A stretch of 62,397 nt of DNA, filler included, from Candidatus Tectimicrobiota bacterium (lineage in GTDB: Bacteria; JACPSX01): the NCBI GenBank assembly GCA_016193065.1. It is 9 parts of 9 records of this genome, joined end to end, with 100 filler letters (N's around TTAATTAATTAA, not from the genome) between each part and the next. Parts side by side here need not be neighbours in the genome. Positions count along the whole stretch, not along the records: positions 6,804 to 12,608 come from JACPSX010000097.1; 8 more parts are not named here. One strand, 5' to 3'. A program made the position numbers and the translations under genes. The notes under the pieces are model-generated. The model made no database searches and had not been told where the DNA came from. It saw only the letters and a program-made list of their open reading frames with translations. Below are positions 4,176 to 47,761 of the stretch, piece after piece; the stretch's first letter is position 1; every line of letters starts with the position of its first letter.

Positions 4176-5057
4176 TCAGCGGATAGCGGCGAATTGAGGA
4201 TCCGTAATGGACTCCGGCACAATCGGGTTTACCCCGGCATTGCGCGCCTGAAAGTCGATCTCGGAGCGCAGTGAATCCAGAGAAAGCTCGGCGGTCCAGC
4301 GGTCCTTAAGCAGGTCGTAGCCGCGCACGGCGAGAGAGGGCTCCAAGTGAAAATAGCGCGAGATGAAATCCACCGCAGTCCCACGGTCTTCCTTCAAGGC
4401 TGTGACCCCGCGAACATAGCTGCGCACTACGGCTTCAACGAGAGGGCGTCGCTGTGCGATGGTCGCTGTGGTCGCCACCAGGCCATGGCTTGCGGTGCCG
4501 GGAAAGTGGGTGCTCAGCTCGGTTAAGGACTTGAATCCCTTGGCGTGGAGGAGAAAGGGGGTGGGGGGAGAGGCGATAAGCCCCGTGTAGGCTCCCTCTT
4601 CGAACTTGCGGACGCGGTCGGCCATGGTCTCGGGAGAAACCTGGGGAACCAGGAAAACATCCCGGTCGGGGATGAGGCCGTTCTTTTGGAAAAACCATCG
4701 GGTTTGAATCTCCGGGGTCGAGCCGGCACCCGGGATGGCGATGCTCTTCCCTCTCAACTCCTGAATACCTTGGATCTCGGCAGGGACGATCAGGTCGTGC
4801 AGGGGGTCCTTGAGGACCTGCAGGAGGATCTTTAGGTCCGTGGGCCCGCGGAGGGCCGTCTGGATCACGCACTCGTTGGCGGCTCCAAAGTCCGCTTCGC
4901 CTTGGGCCACTGCCTCGGTGTTATGCAACCCGGGGCGGACGATCACTTCGACCTCGATCCCTTCTTTTCGAAAAAATCCCTGCTCGATTCCGAAGAGGTA
5001 GTTACACAGGTTTAAAGTCGGGGCCATGATCGCGAGACGAATTTTCTCGTTTCCCAT
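4176..5057 (-). CDS. NMT1/THI5/SsuA-like ABC substrate-binding-fold protein, no obvious signal peptide
   Basis: GFFRKEGIEVEV and LRGKSIAIPGAGST motifs; ATG at 5057 preceded by GGGAG. Confidence 0.8.
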   Translation of the reverse strand: MGNEKIRLAIMAPTLNLCNYLFGIEQGFFRKEGIEVEVIVRPGLHNTEAVAQGEADFGAANECVIQTALRGPTDLKILLQVLKDPLHDLIVPAEIQGIQELRGKSIAIPGAGSTPEIQTRWFFQKNGLIPDRDVFLVPQVSPETMADRVRKFEEGAYTGLIASPPTPFLLHAKGFKSLTELSTHFPGTASHGLVATTATIAQRRPLVEAVVRSYVRGVTALKEDRGTAVDFISRYFHLEPSLAVRGYDLLKDRWTAELSLDSLRSEIDFQARNAGVNPIVPESITDPQFAAIR

Positions 5058-6539: not shown

Positions 6540-6703
6540 ATGGCGAAACCGCCGGGTCTTTCTCAAATCAGGAACATCGGCATCATCTCACATATCGACG
6601 CGGGCAAAACCACAGTAACCGAACGGATTCTCTATTACACGGGGATCACGCACCGCATGGGAGAAGTCCACGAAGGCACCGCCGTGATGGATTACATGGA
6701 GCA
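6540..6703 (+). CDS. fusA: Elongation factor G, N-terminal fragment (contig end)
   Basis: [26 protein letters not shown]...[14 protein letters not shown]. Confidence 0.92.
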
Positions 6704-6803
6704 NNNNNNNNNNNNNNNNNNNNNNNNNNNNNNNNNNNNNNNNNNNNTTAATTAATTAANNNNNNNNNNNNNNNNNNNNNNNNNNNNNNNNNNNNNNNNN
6801 NNN
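6704..6803. other. Artificial contig linker
   Basis: N44-TTAATTAATTAA-N44 (stops in all six frames). Confidence 0.99.
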
Positions 6804-7633
6804 AAAATCCAGCTACTCAGGAAAACCTTCAGAAGCTGCGCCAGCGTGGCGTGCACATTGCTGGCCCCGCCTTGGGGCACCTGGCATCGGGCCAGGTGGG
6901 ACCGGGCCGCCTACTTGAGCCCGCCGAGCTTATCGGGCACATTCGCACCATCCTGGGGCGCACAGGTGACCTGGCAGGCAAGACCATAGTGGTCACCGCG
7001 GGCGGAACCCAGGAGCCCATCGACCCAGTCCGGGTGGTCACCAACCTCTCTTCGGGAAAGATGGGCTACGCTCTGGCTGCAGCCGCCGTCGGCCGTGGGG
7101 GCCGGGTTATTTTGATTAGCGGGCCCGTGACTATTCCTGCGCCCATCGGACTCTCCCAGTATGTCTCCGTGTCCACCGCCGCAGAAATGCGCGACGCCGT
7201 CATGAGCCGGCTCGGGGAGGTGGAGGTGGTCATCAAAGCCGCAGCGGTGGCCGACTTCCGTCCCCAAAAAGCCGCCCGCGGCAAGATCAAGAAGGACACA
7301 ACCTCCCTTTCGCTGGCGCTGGAGCGGACTCCGGACATTTTGGCTGAGATCGGGGCCGTAAAAGAGGACCGGATCTTGGTAGGCTTTGCCGCCGAGACGG
7401 ATAATCTTCTGGAAAACGCCCGGCGAAAGATCAAGGAAAAGAACCTCGATCTTCTGGTCGTTAACGACGTGGGGCGTCCGGACATCGGCTTTCACAGCGA
7501 CTACAACCAGGTCACCTTCGTGTACGCCGATGGAACTTCCGAGGAAACCCCGCGGCTCCTCAAAACGGAAATTGCGGGAATCATCCTCGACCGCGTTGCA
7601 TCCCTGATCTCCCGACGCCGGGGGCGACCGTGA
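6804..7633 (+). CDS. coaBC: Phosphopantothenoylcysteine decarboxylase/ligase, 5'-truncated
   Basis: VVTAGGTQEPIDPVRVVTNLSSGKMGYA, AAAVADF, LVGFAAET, VVNDV. Confidence 0.95.
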
Positions 7634-8548: not shown

Positions 8549-9583
8549 CTAGCGCGCTGGCACTCCGTGCAGGACCCTGCCGGCCGCCTCGATGAAGGGC
8601 TGCAGCTCCACCATGAGCTTCTCAAACTTGCTCGGCTTCAAGGACTGGGGCCCATCCGAGAACGCCTCCTCCGGCCGCGGATGCACCTCCACCATGATCC
8701 CGTCGGCCCCCGCCGCTATGGCCGCCTTGGCCATGGGAATCACGTACCGCCAGTTCCCCGTGGCGTGGCTCGGATCCACAATGACCGGCAAATGGGTCTC
8801 CTCCTTGAGCACCGGAACCGAACTGATGTCCAGAGAATTCCGGGTGGCCGTCTCAAACGTCCGGATCCCCCGCTCGCACAGAATCACGTTGGGGTTCCCC
8901 TCCGACAGAATGTACTCGGCCGACATCAAAAACTCCTGGATCGTGGTCATCATGCCGCGCTTCAAAAACACCGGCTTGGAGACCCGCCCCAGACGCTTGA
9001 GCAACGAGAAGTTCTGCACGTTGCGGGCCCCCACCTGCAGAATATCCGCATAGGCATTCACCAGGTCCACCTCCTCGGGGTTCATCACCTCGGTGATGAT
9101 CGGCAACCCGGTCTCCTCCCGCGCTTCCGCCAAAATCCGCAGCCCCTCCTCGGCCATCCCCTGAAACGCGTAGGGAGACGTGCGCGGCTTGAAGGCTCCC
9201 CCGCGCAATATGTGAGCCCCATGGGCCTTGACCACGCGGGCCGTCTCCAAAACCTGCTCCCGGCTCTCCACCGAGCAGGGACCGGCCATGACGACGACCT
9301 CCGGTCCCCCAATCTTGACCCCTCCCACGGAGATCACGGTCCCTTCCGACTTGAACTGCCGGCCCCCCAGCTTGTAGGGCTTCAGGATGGGAACCACGCT
9401 CTCCACGCCGGGCATGGAGATGAGAGCCTGGAGCTGGGCCTTGCCCCGCTCATCCCCCACCGCGCCGATGACCGTCTTTTCCACTCCCCGGATGAGGTGC
9501 GTGTTATATCCCATGGCCTTCCCCCGGCCGATCACTTCTTCGACTTGCGCATCCGTCGACTTGCCCTTCATTACGATGATCAT
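8549..9583 (-). CDS. aroF: DAHP synthase, type I-beta with N-terminal regulatory domain
   Basis: [48 protein letters not shown]; start 9583 best spaced from GGGAG (alternative 9589). Confidence 0.95.
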
Positions 9584-9612
9584 CTCCATCTCCCTCGTTA
9601 GTTGCCAAATGA

Positions 9613-9651
9613 AAAACGGGCCATCCTGTCTTCTACCCGGCGGCCCGTTTT
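9613..9651 (-). terminator. Second hairpin in the aroF leader, possible additional terminator
   Basis: AAAACGGGCC...GGCCCGTTTTT inverted repeat between the attenuator and the aroF RBS. Confidence 0.45.
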
Positions 9652-9657
9652 ACCCAT

Positions 9658-9692
9658 AAAAAAAGCCGCGGGGCTCTTCGTCCACCCGCGGC
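9658..9692 (-). terminator. Intrinsic terminator (attenuator) upstream of aroF
   Basis: GCCGCGGG/CCCGCGGC stem followed by T7 on minus strand. Confidence 0.85.
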
Positions 9693-9711
9693 CTGTATTG
9701 AGTTCGCTTAG

Positions 9712-9831
9712 CTAACTGTTCCTGCTCTCACCACCCAACACAGCGCCCGGGCAGACGGGGGTAAAGTAAAAGCAATAAAAGTACCGCCAAGCCCCTTTCT
9801 GCCCGATTCTCTCTGCGACGCTGGGTGTCAT
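9712..9831 (-). CDS. 39-aa aromatic amino acid leader peptide of aroF
   Basis: GAGGA RBS + ATG; MTPSVAERIGQKGAWRYFYCFYFTPVCPGAVLGGESRNS; mutually exclusive RNA helices and terminator downstream. Confidence 0.85.
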   Translation of the reverse strand: MTPSVAERIGQKGAWRYFYCFYFTPVCPGAVLGGESRNS

Positions 9832-10039
9832 GCACATCCTCGAATTGCCCGATCTTGTAGACGAGACGACGACAATGCAGTATATATACTCGACCCCTTC
9901 CGGTGGTGTCAAGGCTTTTTTAGGGCTTGCTCACCCCCAGTTCATCATCGAGGAAGTGGGACTTGGCAAAATCCTCGGGGTGCCCCCTTGGGCTCACGAA
10001 GCGCTTGCGACGTGAATTGTGTGGGCCGGATTAAGAGTT

Positions 10040-10275
10040 CCCTTCCTCGCAACCGCTTAGATCGCCTGCGGGGGCTACCCCTCGGACCGGGACGACTGAG
10101 GAGGCTGCCCGATCTGCCCTGAGCGGAACTGCCGGGAGCAATGGGGACCCACCGGGAGCGGCCAGGGATGGGAAACCGCGCAGCCTAGACTTGCTTGCAG
10201 ATAGCTGACCACTTAACGTGGCGGTAGCGGAGGGGTCCCACCCTGGGCGCCCCAGAAGGGTCATTGCGGAAGGCG
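10040..10275 (+). ncRNA. Candidate structured RNA of unknown family (strand inferred)
   Basis: About ten nested helices visible by eye, e.g. GCAATG/CATTGC, GGGACCC/GGGTCCC, CCGCTT/GAGCGG, AGATCG/CGATCT; no credible ORF. Confidence 0.5.
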
Positions 10276-10358
10276 TGAAGCGAAGGGCAGGAGGAAGCCC
10301 CTTTGCTATGGAGCCGCTTTCAGAGATGGGGGTGGGCAAGCTTTTTAAGGGGGTAGCA

Positions 10359-11513
10359 ATGCTTGCTGAGCGGGTAAAAACGTTCACGGAATCGGTGATC
10401 CGGGGAATGACCCGGGAGTGTCTGAAATACGGGGGGATCAACCTGGCCCAGGGCTTCCCCGATTTCGACCCCCCGGAAGAAATAAAGGAGGCCGCCGTCC
10501 GTGCGATTCGGGACGGCTACAACCAGTACGCCATCACCTGGGGGTCACCCAACCTGCGCCAGGCCATTGCTGAAAAGGTCGGGACCTACAACGGCATCCC
10601 GGCAGATCCGGAGAAAAACGTGGTGGTTACCTGCGGGGCCACGGAAGCCATGATCGCCTCTCTACTCGCCACGGTCAACCCCGGGGAGGAGGTGATTGTC
10701 TTCGAGCCCTTCTACGAAAACTACGGCCCCGACGCCACCCTGGCTGGCGCAAGCCCGCGCTATGTTTCCCTGCGCGGCCCCCAACTGAGGTTTGACCCGG
10801 AGGAGATGGAAAAGGCTTTCACGCCCCGGACTCGGGCTCTCATTCTCAACACCCCTCACAACCCAACGGGGAAAGTTTTCAGCGGCGAGGAACTGGAGAT
10901 CATCGCCCGGCTTTGCTGCCGGCACAACGTGATTGCGGTCACGGATGAGATCTACGAGCACATCCTCTACGACGGTGCCCGCCACGTGAGCCTGGCCACG
11001 CTGGAAGGGATGTCGGAGCGGACCATCACCATCAGCGGCCTCTCCAAAACTTACAGCGTGACGGGCTGGCGTTTGGGGTATACGATTGCCTCCCCGGAAA
11101 TCACCGACGGGATCCGCAAGGTTCACGACTTCCTGACAGTGGGGGCACCGGCCCCGCTTCAGGAAGCGGCGGCGGTCGCTCTGCGCCTGCCGGACAGTTA
11201 TTACCAAGGGCTGCAACTGGATTACGCGCGCCGGCGGGATCTTCTGTACGGCGCCCTCTGCGAGGCGGGATTTCAGTGCACGATCCCCAAGGGCGCTTAC
11301 TATATCCTCACGAACTTCGAGGCCTTCGATGCCGGGGACGATACGGAATTTGCCATGCGGCTGGTGCGGGATGTGGGAGTAGCTGCCGTACCGGGCAGCA
11401 GCTTTTACCACCATGCGGATCTGGGGAAAGGCCAGATCCGGTTTACCTTTTGCAAGAGGGAGGAAACCCTGCAAGCTGCCGCCAGGCGGCTTCTCACGCT
11501 AACCCGCCTGTGA
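10359..11513 (+). CDS. PLP-dependent class I/II aminotransferase (methionine/kynurenine aminotransferase-like)
   Basis: INLAQGFPDF, NTPHNPTGK, DEIYEH, SKTYSVTGWRLG. Confidence 0.92.
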   Translation: MLAERVKTFTESVIRGMTRECLKYGGINLAQGFPDFDPPEEIKEAAVRAIRDGYNQYAITWGSPNLRQAIAEKVGTYNGIPADPEKNVVVTCGATEAMIASLLATVNPGEEVIVFEPFYENYGPDATLAGASPRYVSLRGPQLRFDPEEMEKAFTPRTRALILNTPHNPTGKVFSGEELEIIARLCCRHNVIAVTDEIYEHILYDGARHVSLATLEGMSERTITISGLSKTYSVTGWRLGYTIASPEITDGIRKVHDFLTVGAPAPLQEAAAVALRLPDSYYQGLQLDYARRRDLLYGALCEAGFQCTIPKGAYYILTNFEAFDAGDDTEFAMRLVRDVGVAAVPGSSFYHHADLGKGQIRFTFCKREETLQAAARRLLTLTRL

Positions 11514-12608
11514 GTAAACGACTTCTCCCGCCTTCACCGTCATCACGATCACTGCGGCATCTGGAGATTCCACGAAGTCCGGGGTTACCGCCACCAGATC
11601 CGCCTGACAGCCCACCGCGATGGACCCGATACTGGTTTCCCGGGAAATTGCGTCTGCACTGCCGCGTGTGTAAGCAAGGACCGCCTGCCACAGTGAGAGG
11701 CGCTGGGCCGCAACCGGATGATAGAGGGCTCCTTGAATCCCCAACAGAGGTCCGGGAGGCATAGAATCTGAACCAAAACAGAGGGGGATGCCGGCGTCCC
11801 AGACTTGGCGGAACGGGTTGGCCTGCCGACCTCGCTTCCCGAGCTTCTGTTCGTAAAGCCCCCCAGGGGCCTGCCAGTTCGCCACAAAATTCGGCTGCAT
11901 GGACAGAGAAAACCCGCCGCGCTTCACCCCCTCCAGGTGGTCATTCCTGAGAAGTTCCGCGTGCTCGATCCGATTCCAACCGTGAGGTCTTTCCCGCAGC
12001 CCACCCGCTTTGCGGGTACCCGGGGCCACGGCCAGGATCTGGCTGATGGCGCGGTCTCCGATGGCGTGGATGGCAAAGGGGACACCCAGGCGCACCATGT
12101 TCTCCAGGCATTCTCCCATCTCCCGATCGGAAAACAGCAAGCTGCCGCGGTTTTCAGGCTCACCCCTGTAAGGTTTCTCGAGGGCCGCCGTCCCGGCCCC
12201 GATGGAGCCATCGGCAAAGATCTTGACCCCCACCACCTCCACCCTTCCTTTCTTGGCCTGGAAATACCGGCGGATTTCCCCAAAACGATCGGACATGGCC
12301 AGGGGAAGATAGCAGAAGATGTCCAGCGGCAGACTCCCGGCGCGGTCCAGGAGTTCCAGCGTTTCCTCTCCATCGATCATCTCGTGAACCGAGGTGATTC
12401 CCAGTGCGGAGATCTGTGTCAGGACTTCCCAGAAGTCCTGCTTCAAGAATGCGAGATCCCGGGGGATGAGGTCTTCCGTTTTCCACAGGGCCTGCTCGCG
12501 GATCAAGCCATTTTGGGGGGACTCCTTGGCGGTGATCTCCGCAGGCAGAAGGGAGAGAGCGCGGGAATTGATGACCCCGGCATGTCCGCAGACCCGCCGC
12601 AAGAGCAC
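11499..12608 (-). CDS. Amidohydrolase (YtcJ-like, Amidohydro_3), 5'-truncated
   Basis: CGHAGVINSRAL, KIFADGSIG, HAIGDRA, RIEHAE, FGSDSMP. Confidence 0.9.
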   Translation of the reverse strand: MLLRRVCGHAGVINSRALSLLPAEITAKESPQNGLIREQALWKTEDLIPRDLAFLKQDFWEVLTQISALGITSVHEMIDGEETLELLDRAGSLPLDIFCYLPLAMSDRFGEIRRYFQAKKGRVEVVGVKIFADGSIGAGTAALEKPYRGEPENRGSLLFSDREMGECLENMVRLGVPFAIHAIGDRAISQILAVAPGTRKAGGLRERPHGWNRIEHAELLRNDHLEGVKRGGFSLSMQPNFVANWQAPGGLYEQKLGKRGRQANPFRQVWDAGIPLCFGSDSMPPGPLLGIQGALYHPVAAQRLSLWQAVLAYTRGSADAISRETSIGSIAVGCQADLVAVTPDFVESPDAAVIVMTVKAGEVVYSQAG

Positions 12609-12708
12609 NNNNNNNNNNNNNNNNNNNNNNNNNNNNNNNNNNNNNNNNNNNNTTAATTAATTAANNNNNNNNNNNNNNNNNNNNNNNNNNNNNNNNNNNN
12701 NNNNNNNN
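12609..12708. other. Artificial contig linker
   Basis: N44-TTAATTAATTAA-N44. Confidence 0.99.
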
Positions 12709-46443: not shown

Positions 46444-46765
46444 GCCTTTGAGATACCGGGCATTATACCCTGTACGGGCGGAAAACTGCACGGGATAGAG
46501 ACTCTGAGAGTTGTCGGCCTTGACCGTTTCTTGCAGGGATGAGAGAATCAATCCCCGGATATATCTTGCAGCAAAGTGGTCCGACCCAAGGAAACGAAAC
46601 CAGGGGGAGAAGAGGGGAGGGGGGCGAGATAGGATCTCAGATCCCTCCAAGAGAGGAGGTATCCGCCGTGTGAGCCAAACATCCGGATTGGAGGAAAGGG
46701 TAGCTCCGTTGGCCGCCATCGACAATTGCGAAAACTCAAATGCGGAAGCGGGAAAGGGGAATCTA

Positions 46766-47761
46766 ATGGCAAAGCTCAAGTTGACAATCGCATGTGGAAA
46801 CTACGACCGGACACGAGCCCTCTTGGATGGCAGGATTGAACCTGAAGGGATCGACCTCAATTACATCCCGATGCGTCCCGGTGAGACTTTCTGGCGGATG
46901 CTCAATAACGAGGAGTTTGACGCCTCGGAAATGTCCTTATCCTCCTATACGATCCTGCGCTCGAAAGGGGACACCCGTTTTGTGGCGCTGCCGGTTTTCC
47001 CCTCCCGCATCTTTCGCCAATGCTGCGTTTACGTCTATTCCCGGGCCGGAATTAAACGGCCCCAGGATCTCAAGGGGAAGCGGCTCGGTGCCGCCGATTA
47101 TCAGATGACGGCCGCGGTCTGGGTGCGGGGGTTCCTGCAGCACGACTACGGGGTGATGCCCGAGGACCTCAATTGGGTTGTGGGCGCTCCGGTGCGATTT
47201 GGGGTCAGCATTCCCTCCCGAGTCCGCATCGAGCAAATCAGCCCGGGCCAATCTCTGGACGAGATGCTGGACCGGGGGGAGGTCGATGCCCTGATCGGGG
47301 TTACGTTCCCCCGTCCTTTCCTGGCCGGATCAACACGTGTTCGGCGGCTGTTCCCGAATTACCGGAAGGTGGAGGAGGAGTATTACCGCCGCACGGGAAT
47401 ATTCCCCATCATGCACACGTTCGTGCTGAAAACCAAACTGTTCGAGGCCGAGCCCTGGGCAGCCATCAGCCTCTACAAGGCCTTTGTCCAGGCCAAGCAG
47501 CTCAATTATCAAACTCTCTATGACACGGATGCCCTGCCGGCGAGCCTGCCCTGGCTTATCGACGAGATCGAAACCTCGCGCCGGATCTTCGGCAAGGATA
47601 TCTGGAACTATTCCATCGAGGGGAGCCGCCCGACCCTTGAAGCCTTGGTCCAGTATCTCGATGAGCAAGGCCTTACCGCGAGGAAGATGACAATTGAGGA
47701 GCTTTTCGTCCCCAATATCCGCGAGCACTATGAGGCCTATCTGGAGTCCTTCTACCACTAA
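46766..47761 (+). CDS. 4,5-dihydroxyphthalate decarboxylase-like protein
   Basis: LTIACGNYDRTRAL, FDASEMSLSSY, YQMTAAVWVRG, TGIFPIMH. Confidence 0.85.
   Translation: MAKLKLTIACGNYDRTRALLDGRIEPEGIDLNYIPMRPGETFWRMLNNEEFDASEMSLSSYTILRSKGDTRFVALPVFPSRIFRQCCVYVYSRAGIKRPQDLKGKRLGAADYQMTAAVWVRGFLQHDYGVMPEDLNWVVGAPVRFGVSIPSRVRIEQISPGQSLDEMLDRGEVDALIGVTFPRPFLAGSTRVRRLFPNYRKVEEEYYRRTGIFPIMHTFVLKTKLFEAEPWAAISLYKAFVQAKQLNYQTLYDTDALPASLPWLIDEIETSRRIFGKDIWNYSIEGSRPTLEALVQYLDEQGLTARKMTIEELFVPNIREHYEAYLESFYH

Follow-up and report, generated by a model that had tools for sequence, protein, structure and literature searches.

RESULTS

Layout of the locus

The stretch of DNA analysed here, called the window, comprises 62,397 bases from Candidatus Tectimicrobiota bacterium (assembly GCA_016193065.1), and all coordinates count along this whole stretch. 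On its minus strand, the 330-nucleotide (nt) intergenic stretch between an aminotransferase gene and the gene for 3-deoxy-D-arabino-heptulosonate 7-phosphate (DAHP) synthase contains, in this order, a promoter-like site, a Shine-Dalgarno (SD) sequence, a short upstream open reading frame (uORF) with clustered aromatic codons, two terminator-like hairpins (T1 and T2), and the SD sequence of the DAHP synthase gene. Together these elements are referred to as the window leader, and they are the subject of this analysis. The promoter-like site consists of TTGACA (9912-9907), an 18-nt spacer and the AT-rich TATATATAC (9888-9880), and was recognized from its sequence and its identity in a close relative; a consensus promoter scan did not call it because the -10 element is imperfect.

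The downstream gene (listed as 8549-9589, minus strand) encodes a type I-beta DAHP synthase with an N-terminal ferredoxin-like domain, as judged by family models (NF006421 at 512.9 bits, and matches to PF00793 and PF18152) and by a full-length alignment to the structures PDB 1rzm/3pg9 (E 9e-112). Its SD sequence, GAGGGAG (9596-9590), is followed 6 nt downstream by ATG 9583, which is likely the true start (MIIVMKGK...) instead of ATG 9589, because the latter directly abuts the SD sequence and relatives align from residue 2-3. A monocistronic gene is the best explanation for the layout. The aminotransferase gene (10218-11513, plus strand; open reading frame (ORF) call and family models) is divergent, therefore T1 and T2 are not transcript ends of the upstream gene.

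The leader uORF and its control codons

The uORF occupies 9831-9712 on the minus strand and consists of an open frame of 39 codons followed by TAG (9714-9712), with the predicted product MTPSVAERIGQKGAWRYFYCFYFTPVCPGAVLGGESRNS. The SD sequence GAGG (9841-9838, minus strand) lies 6 nt 5' of ATG 9831; in the nearest relative, a locus from an unclassified soil metagenome-assembled genome (L029), it is GAGGG, 5 nt 5' of the ATG. An alternative start at ATG 9837 would give 41 amino acids, and only ATG 9831 is conserved in L029. At 9789-9763 (minus strand) the frame reads TGG CGG TAC TTT TAT TGC TTT TAC TTT (W-R-Y-F-Y-C-F-Y-F), which amounts to seven aromatic codons in nine: one for Trp, three for Tyr and three for Phe. 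In all six frames of the window this is the sole site with at least six aromatic codons in nine, and a scan using the same threshold for uORFs of at most 60 amino acids with a terminator downstream also returned this leader as the sole match. When the 41-amino-acid form from ATG 9837 was used as query, no protein resembling the uORF product was found among predicted proteins of 22-72 amino acids. A short frame with an SD sequence and start codon in the 5' leader, a cluster of codons for the end products, and then the DAHP synthase gene form the arrangement of an attenuator.

Switch helices and terminator T1

Region 1 (CGGGCAGA, 9805-9798, minus strand) lies 5' of the control codons and is invariant in L029. 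Region 2 (CGUCUGCCCGGGC, 9757-9745, minus strand) can pair with region 1 or with region 3, which is formed by the 5' arm and loop of T1 (9692-9679). In helix 1:2, CGGGCAGA (9805-9798) pairs with UCUGCCCG (9755-9748), with 8/8 pairs present in the unconstrained minimum free energy (MFE) structure, and in the antiterminator CGUCUGCCCG (9757-9748) pairs with CGGGUGGACG (9688-9679) by 10 pairs, including 2 G-U. T1 (9692-9658, minus strand; -18.5 kcal/mol) is an 8-bp GC stem of GCCGCGGG (9692-9685) and CCCGCGGC (9672-9665) followed by U7 (9664-9658); a simple terminator scan did not call it because its loop exceeds the length permitted by the scan. Regions 2 and 3 are held together by a hairpin at 9743-9693 (minus strand) that includes the uORF stop codon, in which CUGUGUUGGGU (9743-9733) pairs with ACUCAAUACAG (9703-9693) by 11 pairs, 2 of them G-U. 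Free and stalled folds both contained this hairpin (10-11 pairs), and a ribosome at the stop codon was the only condition under which it disappeared. Because the terminated state has it as well (10 pairs when the RNA is folded free), we regard it as constant and outside the switch.

The folding energy of the 291-nt leader is -111.6 kcal/mol (z -2.36; 1/200 shuffles as good), and region 2 forms a duplex of -25.6 kcal/mol with the whole 5' arm of T1 (RNAduplex; 2/300 shuffles as good). In constrained folds, free RNA and RNA with a ribosome footprint at the stop codon contained helix 1:2 (8 pairs) together with T1 (8 pairs), and a footprint at W15, R16, Y17, F18 or F21 removed helix 1:2, gave 9-10 antiterminator pairs and left 0 pairs of T1. 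The antiterminator thus excludes T1 and is itself excluded by helix 1:2 or by a ribosome at the stop codon.

A preliminary description of this leader had placed a ribosome-binding site, the 39-amino-acid ORF with its W-R-Y-F-Y-C-F-Y-F run, helix 1:2 enclosing the control codons, and T1 with its U7 at these same positions; the first two agree base for base, and the helix and the terminator are present as it gave them. It had further proposed constrained folding as a check, which gave the expected exchange of T1 for the antiterminator at the five codons named above, and trp/pheA-type attenuation logic, of which every sequence-level hallmark is found. The antiterminator that it described was composed of two helices; the one between 9757-9748 and 9688-9679 forms and excludes T1, and the one between 9743 and 9703 is the constant hairpin and is not part of the switch. 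All coordinates and pairings in the described span check out, but T2, which lies within it, had been passed over.

A second terminator-like hairpin

T2 (9650-9612, minus strand) consists of an A-run (9650-9648), a stem at 9647-9617 with 9 bp (-19.2 kcal/mol) and U5 (9616-9612). In L029 it is conserved to the same degree as T1, and a comparable hairpin follows T1 in three more distant relatives: a deltaproteobacterium (L069), a member of the Spirochaetes (L023) and one of the Leptospirales (L024). The possibility that T2 is a dispersed repeat was rejected, since it occurs as a single copy in the window. An alternative hairpin, 4:5 (9674-9635, minus strand), can arise from sequences of both terminators, the 3' arm of T1 with its U-run on one side and the A-run with the 5' arm of T2 on the other, and at -19.8 kcal/mol it is close to T2 in energy. 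With region 4 free, 4:5 is the MFE structure in the window leader, L029, L023 and L024, and not in L069. Shuffled versions of region 4 reached the observed energy in 8/200 cases for the window leader, 5/200 for L029, 0/200 for both L023 and L024, and 55/200 for L069. A 19-codon ORF (9657-9598, minus strand) begins directly past the T1 U-run, extends across T2 and ends 1 nt before the SD sequence of the gene. It is open in L029 with five amino acid changes and lacks an SD sequence, and it is probably a by-product of T2.

Conservation in the nearest relative

The DAHP synthase of L029 is 93% identical to that of the window over 182 residues, and the entire leader is kept. The identity is unevenly distributed: the promoter-like site (9915-9880) is identical at 35/36 positions, the control codons at 25/27, the region 2 segment 9762-9731 at 31/32, region 3 with T1 (9703-9658) at 42/46, and T2 (9657-9612) also at 42/46, compared to 26/48 for the 5' untranslated region and 17/27 for the hairpin loop, with uORF codons 1-14 in between (35/42). 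In other words, identity is 91-97% in the promoter, the control codons, the switch strands and the two terminators and 54-63% in the linkers; third codon positions of the DAHP synthase genes are 69% identical. The control codons differ by a synonymous change (TAC>TAT) and by TGC>TAC (Cys>Tyr), and therefore the Cys codon of the window leader appears to be a recent departure from Tyr. Both L029 substitutions in the antiterminator strands turn a G-U pair into A-U: G9735>A does so in the constant hairpin, and G9683>A in the antiterminator.

Related leaders in other phyla

For the wider comparison we used 74 loci, obtained by one search of genome contigs with the DAHP synthase (421,883 bases on each strand, both strands scanned). 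The uORF-plus-terminator scan gave 32 matches, of which 30 lie upstream of, and on the same strand as, a DAHP synthase gene or operon, in 20 loci: L029, L016, the deltaproteobacterium L069, L023 (Spirochaetes), L024 (Leptospirales), four Anaerolineae (L010-L013) and 11 Nostocales. The conserved W/Y/F-rich uORFs that the preliminary description had suggested looking for upstream of orthologues were thus present in 20/74 loci together with a terminator, and L029 keeps the start, the codons and the switch strands. Codons for Trp, Tyr and Phe occur together in 28/30 of these uORFs, which are not independent, as 21 come from the 11 Nostocales loci. In 11/11 leaders examined the aromatic frame was open with a start codon. 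Of the two remaining matches, one is weak and lies in L001 on the opposite strand; the other is an ORF of L069 that is rich in Tyr (4838-4960; YYYYYTYTYYYY, ending in TTYYYYYTYTYYYY, with a strong SD sequence). The latter sits between PqqD-family and HPr-kinase-like genes, downstream of a transglutaminase-like gene, and in view of these neighbours it was rejected as a leader; it looks like a precursor of a lasso-type RiPP, a peptide made by the ribosome and modified after translation.

In 9/12 leaders tested, the sequence that directly follows the aromatic run on its 3' side shows complementarity to the 5' arm of T1 (at most 8/300 shuffles as good). A 6-bp antiterminator core was paired in 29/29 aligned cells of five leaders, compared to 18-63% when the partners were slid, and 4/6 of its pairs change on one side. 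The motif GCCGCGGG...CC(C/G)GCGGC-U6-7 is common to the window leader, L029, L023 and L024, and a 13-mer, CCGTCTGCCCGGG, is common to the window leader and L069, where it is read in different frames (TPVCPG versus RPSARG). An nhmmer profile of the two spirochaete leaders (L023 and L024) had its sole window match at 9782-9639 (E 5.9e-4), and a single-sequence search with L023 found the window leader at E 0.01; searches with L069, L024, L016, L059 and L010 gave no match in the window. A covariance model, R1, detected the window leader at 61.1 bits, which is not counted as a test because R1 includes L029. Judged from these sequence comparisons, homology of the leaders across phyla is likely but not settled.

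Two groups deserve mention in their own right. In 10/11 Nostocales loci (L060-L063, L065-L068, L070 and L073) there are two full leader-plus-terminator modules in tandem, for example at 2037-2093 and 2265-2330 in L070, with L059 having one; the leader peptides are of two types, MFSSNYYFYFWFKAVHRE and ...NWFYSFYFWPRANSG. The Nostocales DAHP synthases align only from query residue 73, so that the N-terminal regulatory domain is absent. In the Anaerolineae L010-L013 (approximately 1091-1162 and 1263-2498) an aromatic leader, MKGYWSFFYAYFYGAPKAAVASR, and a terminator precede an operon. In L010 the leader precedes a gene for a chorismate mutase type I-prephenate dehydratase-ACT fusion, directly upstream of the DAHP synthase gene, and L011-L013 show the same leader spacing. 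In L010 one leader therefore seems to gate an operon with three activities.

DISCUSSION

A probable ribosome-mediated attenuator

The anatomy of the leader, its mutually exclusive pairings and their conservation are observed directly. From these sequence features we consider it very probable (roughly 85%) that the leader is a ribosome-mediated transcription attenuator controlling the DAHP synthase gene. The translation of the uORF, the termination at T1 and T2, the identity of the amino acids that matter and the relay described below are what we infer from this anatomy. Transcription would begin a few bases past the promoter-like site, and a ribosome would load onto the 39-codon uORF. With charged tRNA-Trp, tRNA-Tyr and tRNA-Phe plentiful, it would pass the nine control codons and reach the stop codon at 9714-9712, upon which region 1 would re-pair with region 2 behind it, T1 would form, and RNA polymerase would halt at U7 (9664-9658). 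An untranslated uORF would lead to the same termination at T1. When any of the three charged tRNAs is scarce, the ribosome would stall between regions 1 and 2 and leave region 2 single-stranded, free to pair with the emerging 5' arm and loop of T1 in a helix stacked on the constant hairpin, so that T1 would be blocked and the polymerase would proceed. T2, 8 nt past T1, would stop those polymerases that get through although T1 has formed. Under induction, the 3' arm of T1 and its U-run, now unpaired, could base-pair with the 5' arm of T2 and the A-run before it, and T2 would be bypassed. That 4:5 is favoured when region 4 is free suggests such a relay, in which antitermination at T1 is passed on to T2, with T2 serving as a second barrier whenever T1 has formed. 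We propose this bypass tentatively, at somewhat less than even odds.

The wider comparison raises the possibility that the window leader belongs to an uncatalogued RNA family associated with type I-beta DAHP synthase genes in Nostocales, Spirochaetes, Chloroflexi, a deltaproteobacterium and the present lineage, in which one uORF reads three aromatic amino acids and termination occurs in two stages. These stages may take the form of two terminators with a relay hairpin, as here, or of tandem leader-terminator modules, as in Nostocales. This grouping is conceivable, and we would not yet wager on it.

Several results weigh against these readings. With a plain-mask footprint at Y19 or C20 the folds still contain helix 1:2 and T1, a closure around the ribosome that we expect to be sterically impossible, and a footprint at the last control codon, F23, covers part of region 2 and gives T1. 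The loci compared include a single close relative (n=1), and covariation within the lineage amounts to two wobble-to-Watson-Crick changes. As to the relay, a fold begun at 9678 favours T2 with a small hairpin by 2 kcal/mol, T2 is kept at equilibrium in every full-length constrained fold, and L069 lacks the preference for 4:5. As to the family, no such leader is present in 54/74 loci, among them most of the relatives with 65-72% identity (L001-L009 and L015), and the element is patchy. None of the antiterminator core pairs changes on both sides in the MAFFT columns, which are out of register for the hairpins of L023, L024 and L069, and 500/500 shuffles equal the observed value. Finally, a covariance model built without the lineage of the window (R2; L069, L023 and L024), for which an RNAalifold consensus pairing region 2 with the 3' arm of T1 was used, missed the window leader; its one window match, at 46962-47057 with E 3.1, overlaps a long plus-strand ORF (46511-47761).

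Alternative explanations

The alternative that survives best concerns the signal and not the mechanism: the same attenuator might report only Phe, or Phe and Tyr, with the single Trp codon and the Cys codon as passengers. One TGG stands against three Tyr and three Phe codons, which counts against a role for Trp, the Cys codon is Tyr in L029, and two of the 30 related uORFs (L012 and L023) have no Trp in the run. Likewise, in the available part of a review, the Corynebacterium glutamicum operon preceded by the F-Y-F leader aroR is described as responding by increased read-through to limitation of Phe, and not to Tyr availability (PMC11802643). However, Trp is found in or beside the run in the other 28 uORFs, in several unrelated peptide contexts (WRYFY, RWGWFSWYF, FYFYWFYFY, GYWSFFYAYFY, NWFYSFYFW and NYYFYFWF), and constrained folding with a ribosome stalled at W15 yields the complete antiterminator. 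We therefore regard the narrower signal as rather unlikely, and give an even chance to all three amino acids being relevant to the leader.

A leader RNA that binds a ligand or a protein (a riboswitch, a T-box, or a TRAP/PyrR-type site), with an incidental uORF, would fit the conserved structure with its two terminators and the fact that region 2 is conserved more at the RNA than at the peptide level. Yet an Rfam scan of 9300-10300 with E up to 10 gave chance-level matches only (ar14, on the antisense strand, at 22.5 bits versus a threshold of 58.8, and microRNA models), with no T-box or other cis-regulatory family, and a scan of ten related loci at gathering scores gave 0 matches. The Phe_leader family (RF01859) scored 16.7 bits versus a gathering score of 55 (E 7.9), and on this score the window leader is not a member. 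Moreover, what the leaders have in common across phyla is an aromatic codon run in a startable frame and not a core resembling a ligand pocket, which makes this explanation very improbable.

Even less probable is that the uORF encodes an aromatic-rich, hydrophobic peptide with a function of its own, such as a membrane peptide or a RiPP precursor, and that the hairpins are ordinary transcript ends. In its favour stands the off-target match in L069 (4838-4960), which looks like a RiPP precursor beside RiPP-type genes, but the uORF of the window is not flanked by PqqD, transglutaminase-like or HPr-kinase-like genes and no predicted protein resembles its product. In addition, the peptide beyond the aromatic run is unconserved across lineages, with region 2 being read in another frame in L069, and the uORF invariably shares its strand with a gene of the aromatic pathway and lies just upstream of it.

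A leucine leader, in which the +2 frame of the T-rich stretch reads VLLLLLLY (ORF 9835-9728, minus strand, from GTG 9835), does offer six consecutive Leu codons followed by the same terminators, with FLLLLLY in the corresponding frame of L029, but it was rejected on a frame check of the 11 leaders and is the least credible of all, because alternating TAY and TTT automatically yield CTT and TTA, GTG 9835 is only 2 nt from the SD sequence and absent in L029, the +2 frame has a start in 4/11 leaders and is closed by stops in 2/11, compared to a start in 11/11 for the aromatic frame, and the regulated genes are those for DAHP synthase and the chorismate mutase-prephenate dehydratase fusion. This +2-frame Leu run (9835-9728, minus strand) could mislead automated leader-peptide finders.

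Relation to known leaders

The attenuator proposed here is of a known kind. It shares with the E. coli-type pheL-pheA and trpL-trpE leaders the 1:2 / 2:3 / 3:4 logic, control codons just before region 2, and a terminator U-run. Unlike the window leader, these two each respond to one amino acid and precede terminal-branch genes, and in the window leader helix 1:2 encloses the control codons in its loop and the uORF extends 11 codons past region 2. The his leader is a chain of alternative hairpins, A:B, B:C, C:D, D:E and E:F. The window leader, with the relay proposed here, resembles it in having more than four segments whose successive pairings are mutually exclusive, and differs in that 3:4 and 5:6 both have the form of a terminator, whereas in the his leader only the last hairpin does. 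Leaders that respond to several amino acids, among them thr and ilv, are found in textbooks. The statement in the preliminary description that textbook leaders sense one amino acid therefore overstated the novelty, as a leader with mixed Phe and Tyr codons on a DAHP synthase gene has also been published.

That published leader is aroR of C. glutamicum, a leader peptide with F-Y-F that precedes aroF; for it, the available parts of three articles cite Neshat et al. 2014 (PMC11802643, PMC7356990, PMC4046766). As described there, aroR-aroF is similar to the window leader in having mixed aromatic codons upstream of a DAHP synthase gene and in that ribosome stalling raises expression; it has three such codons, none for Trp, compared to seven including Trp here, and by this description the second terminator is a feature of the window leader. 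The class of DAHP synthase and the phylum presumably differ as well. In Acholeplasma, a predicted uORF with an intrinsic terminator ahead of aroF, named uORFC-13-1, is a second precedent (Brewer et al. 2021, PMC8632094). In the available part of that paper, the element likewise precedes the gene for 3-deoxy-7-phosphoheptulonate synthase, the rate at which Phe is incorporated is the proposed signal, a U-run codes for at least one Phe, and the 24 representatives come from Acholeplasma and environmental sequences only; the description mentions no Trp or Tyr codons, and it is by this description that we set the element apart from the window leader (PMC8632094). An old attenuation hypothesis for E. 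coli aroF is cited in the parts available of two articles (PMC8632094, PMC2659441), and those of PMC1262725, PMC4833913 and PMC8079986 contain nothing on DAHP synthase leaders. These three precedents were the only ones found. In the full-text literature searched, which excludes most subscription journals, neither Trp-Tyr-Phe leaders on DAHP synthase genes nor aromatic leaders of DAHP synthase genes in cyanobacteria, deltaproteobacteria, spirochaetes or Chloroflexi are described. Three features are new: the combination of Trp, Tyr and Phe codons, a second terminator that is conserved, and the wide range of related leaders.

Implications

How much carbon flows into Trp, Tyr, Phe and many secondary metabolites is determined by DAHP synthase. 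In textbooks this step is controlled by allosteric feedback and by the TyrR and TrpR repressors. The comparative sequence data indicate that many bacteria beyond the model organisms gate the DAHP synthase gene, instead or additionally, by what appears to be a translated sensor of aromatic tRNA charging. If the leaders do form one family, they would represent a general, multivalent two-checkpoint gate at the entry of the shikimate pathway, and a clear case of classical attenuation in cyanobacteria. The comparative set provides material for a new RNA family model and for the annotation of leaders skipped by gene callers, and it offers culturable Nostoc strains as test systems for a two-stage attenuator. 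For the window itself, an otherwise empty 330-nt intergenic region gains a confident annotation.

Neighbouring features

The aminotransferase ORF was called from GTG 10218, and family models align only from residue 47-54. If the gene starts at approximately 10359 instead, around 450 nt of unexplained leader (9913-10359) would separate the divergent genes; the part of this segment covered by the 9300-10300 scan has no Rfam family match. The window contains 704 N, and masked stretches (e.g., approximately 6700-6830 and 12608-12700) break several ORFs, one of which is an elongation-factor-like ORF at 6540-6755.

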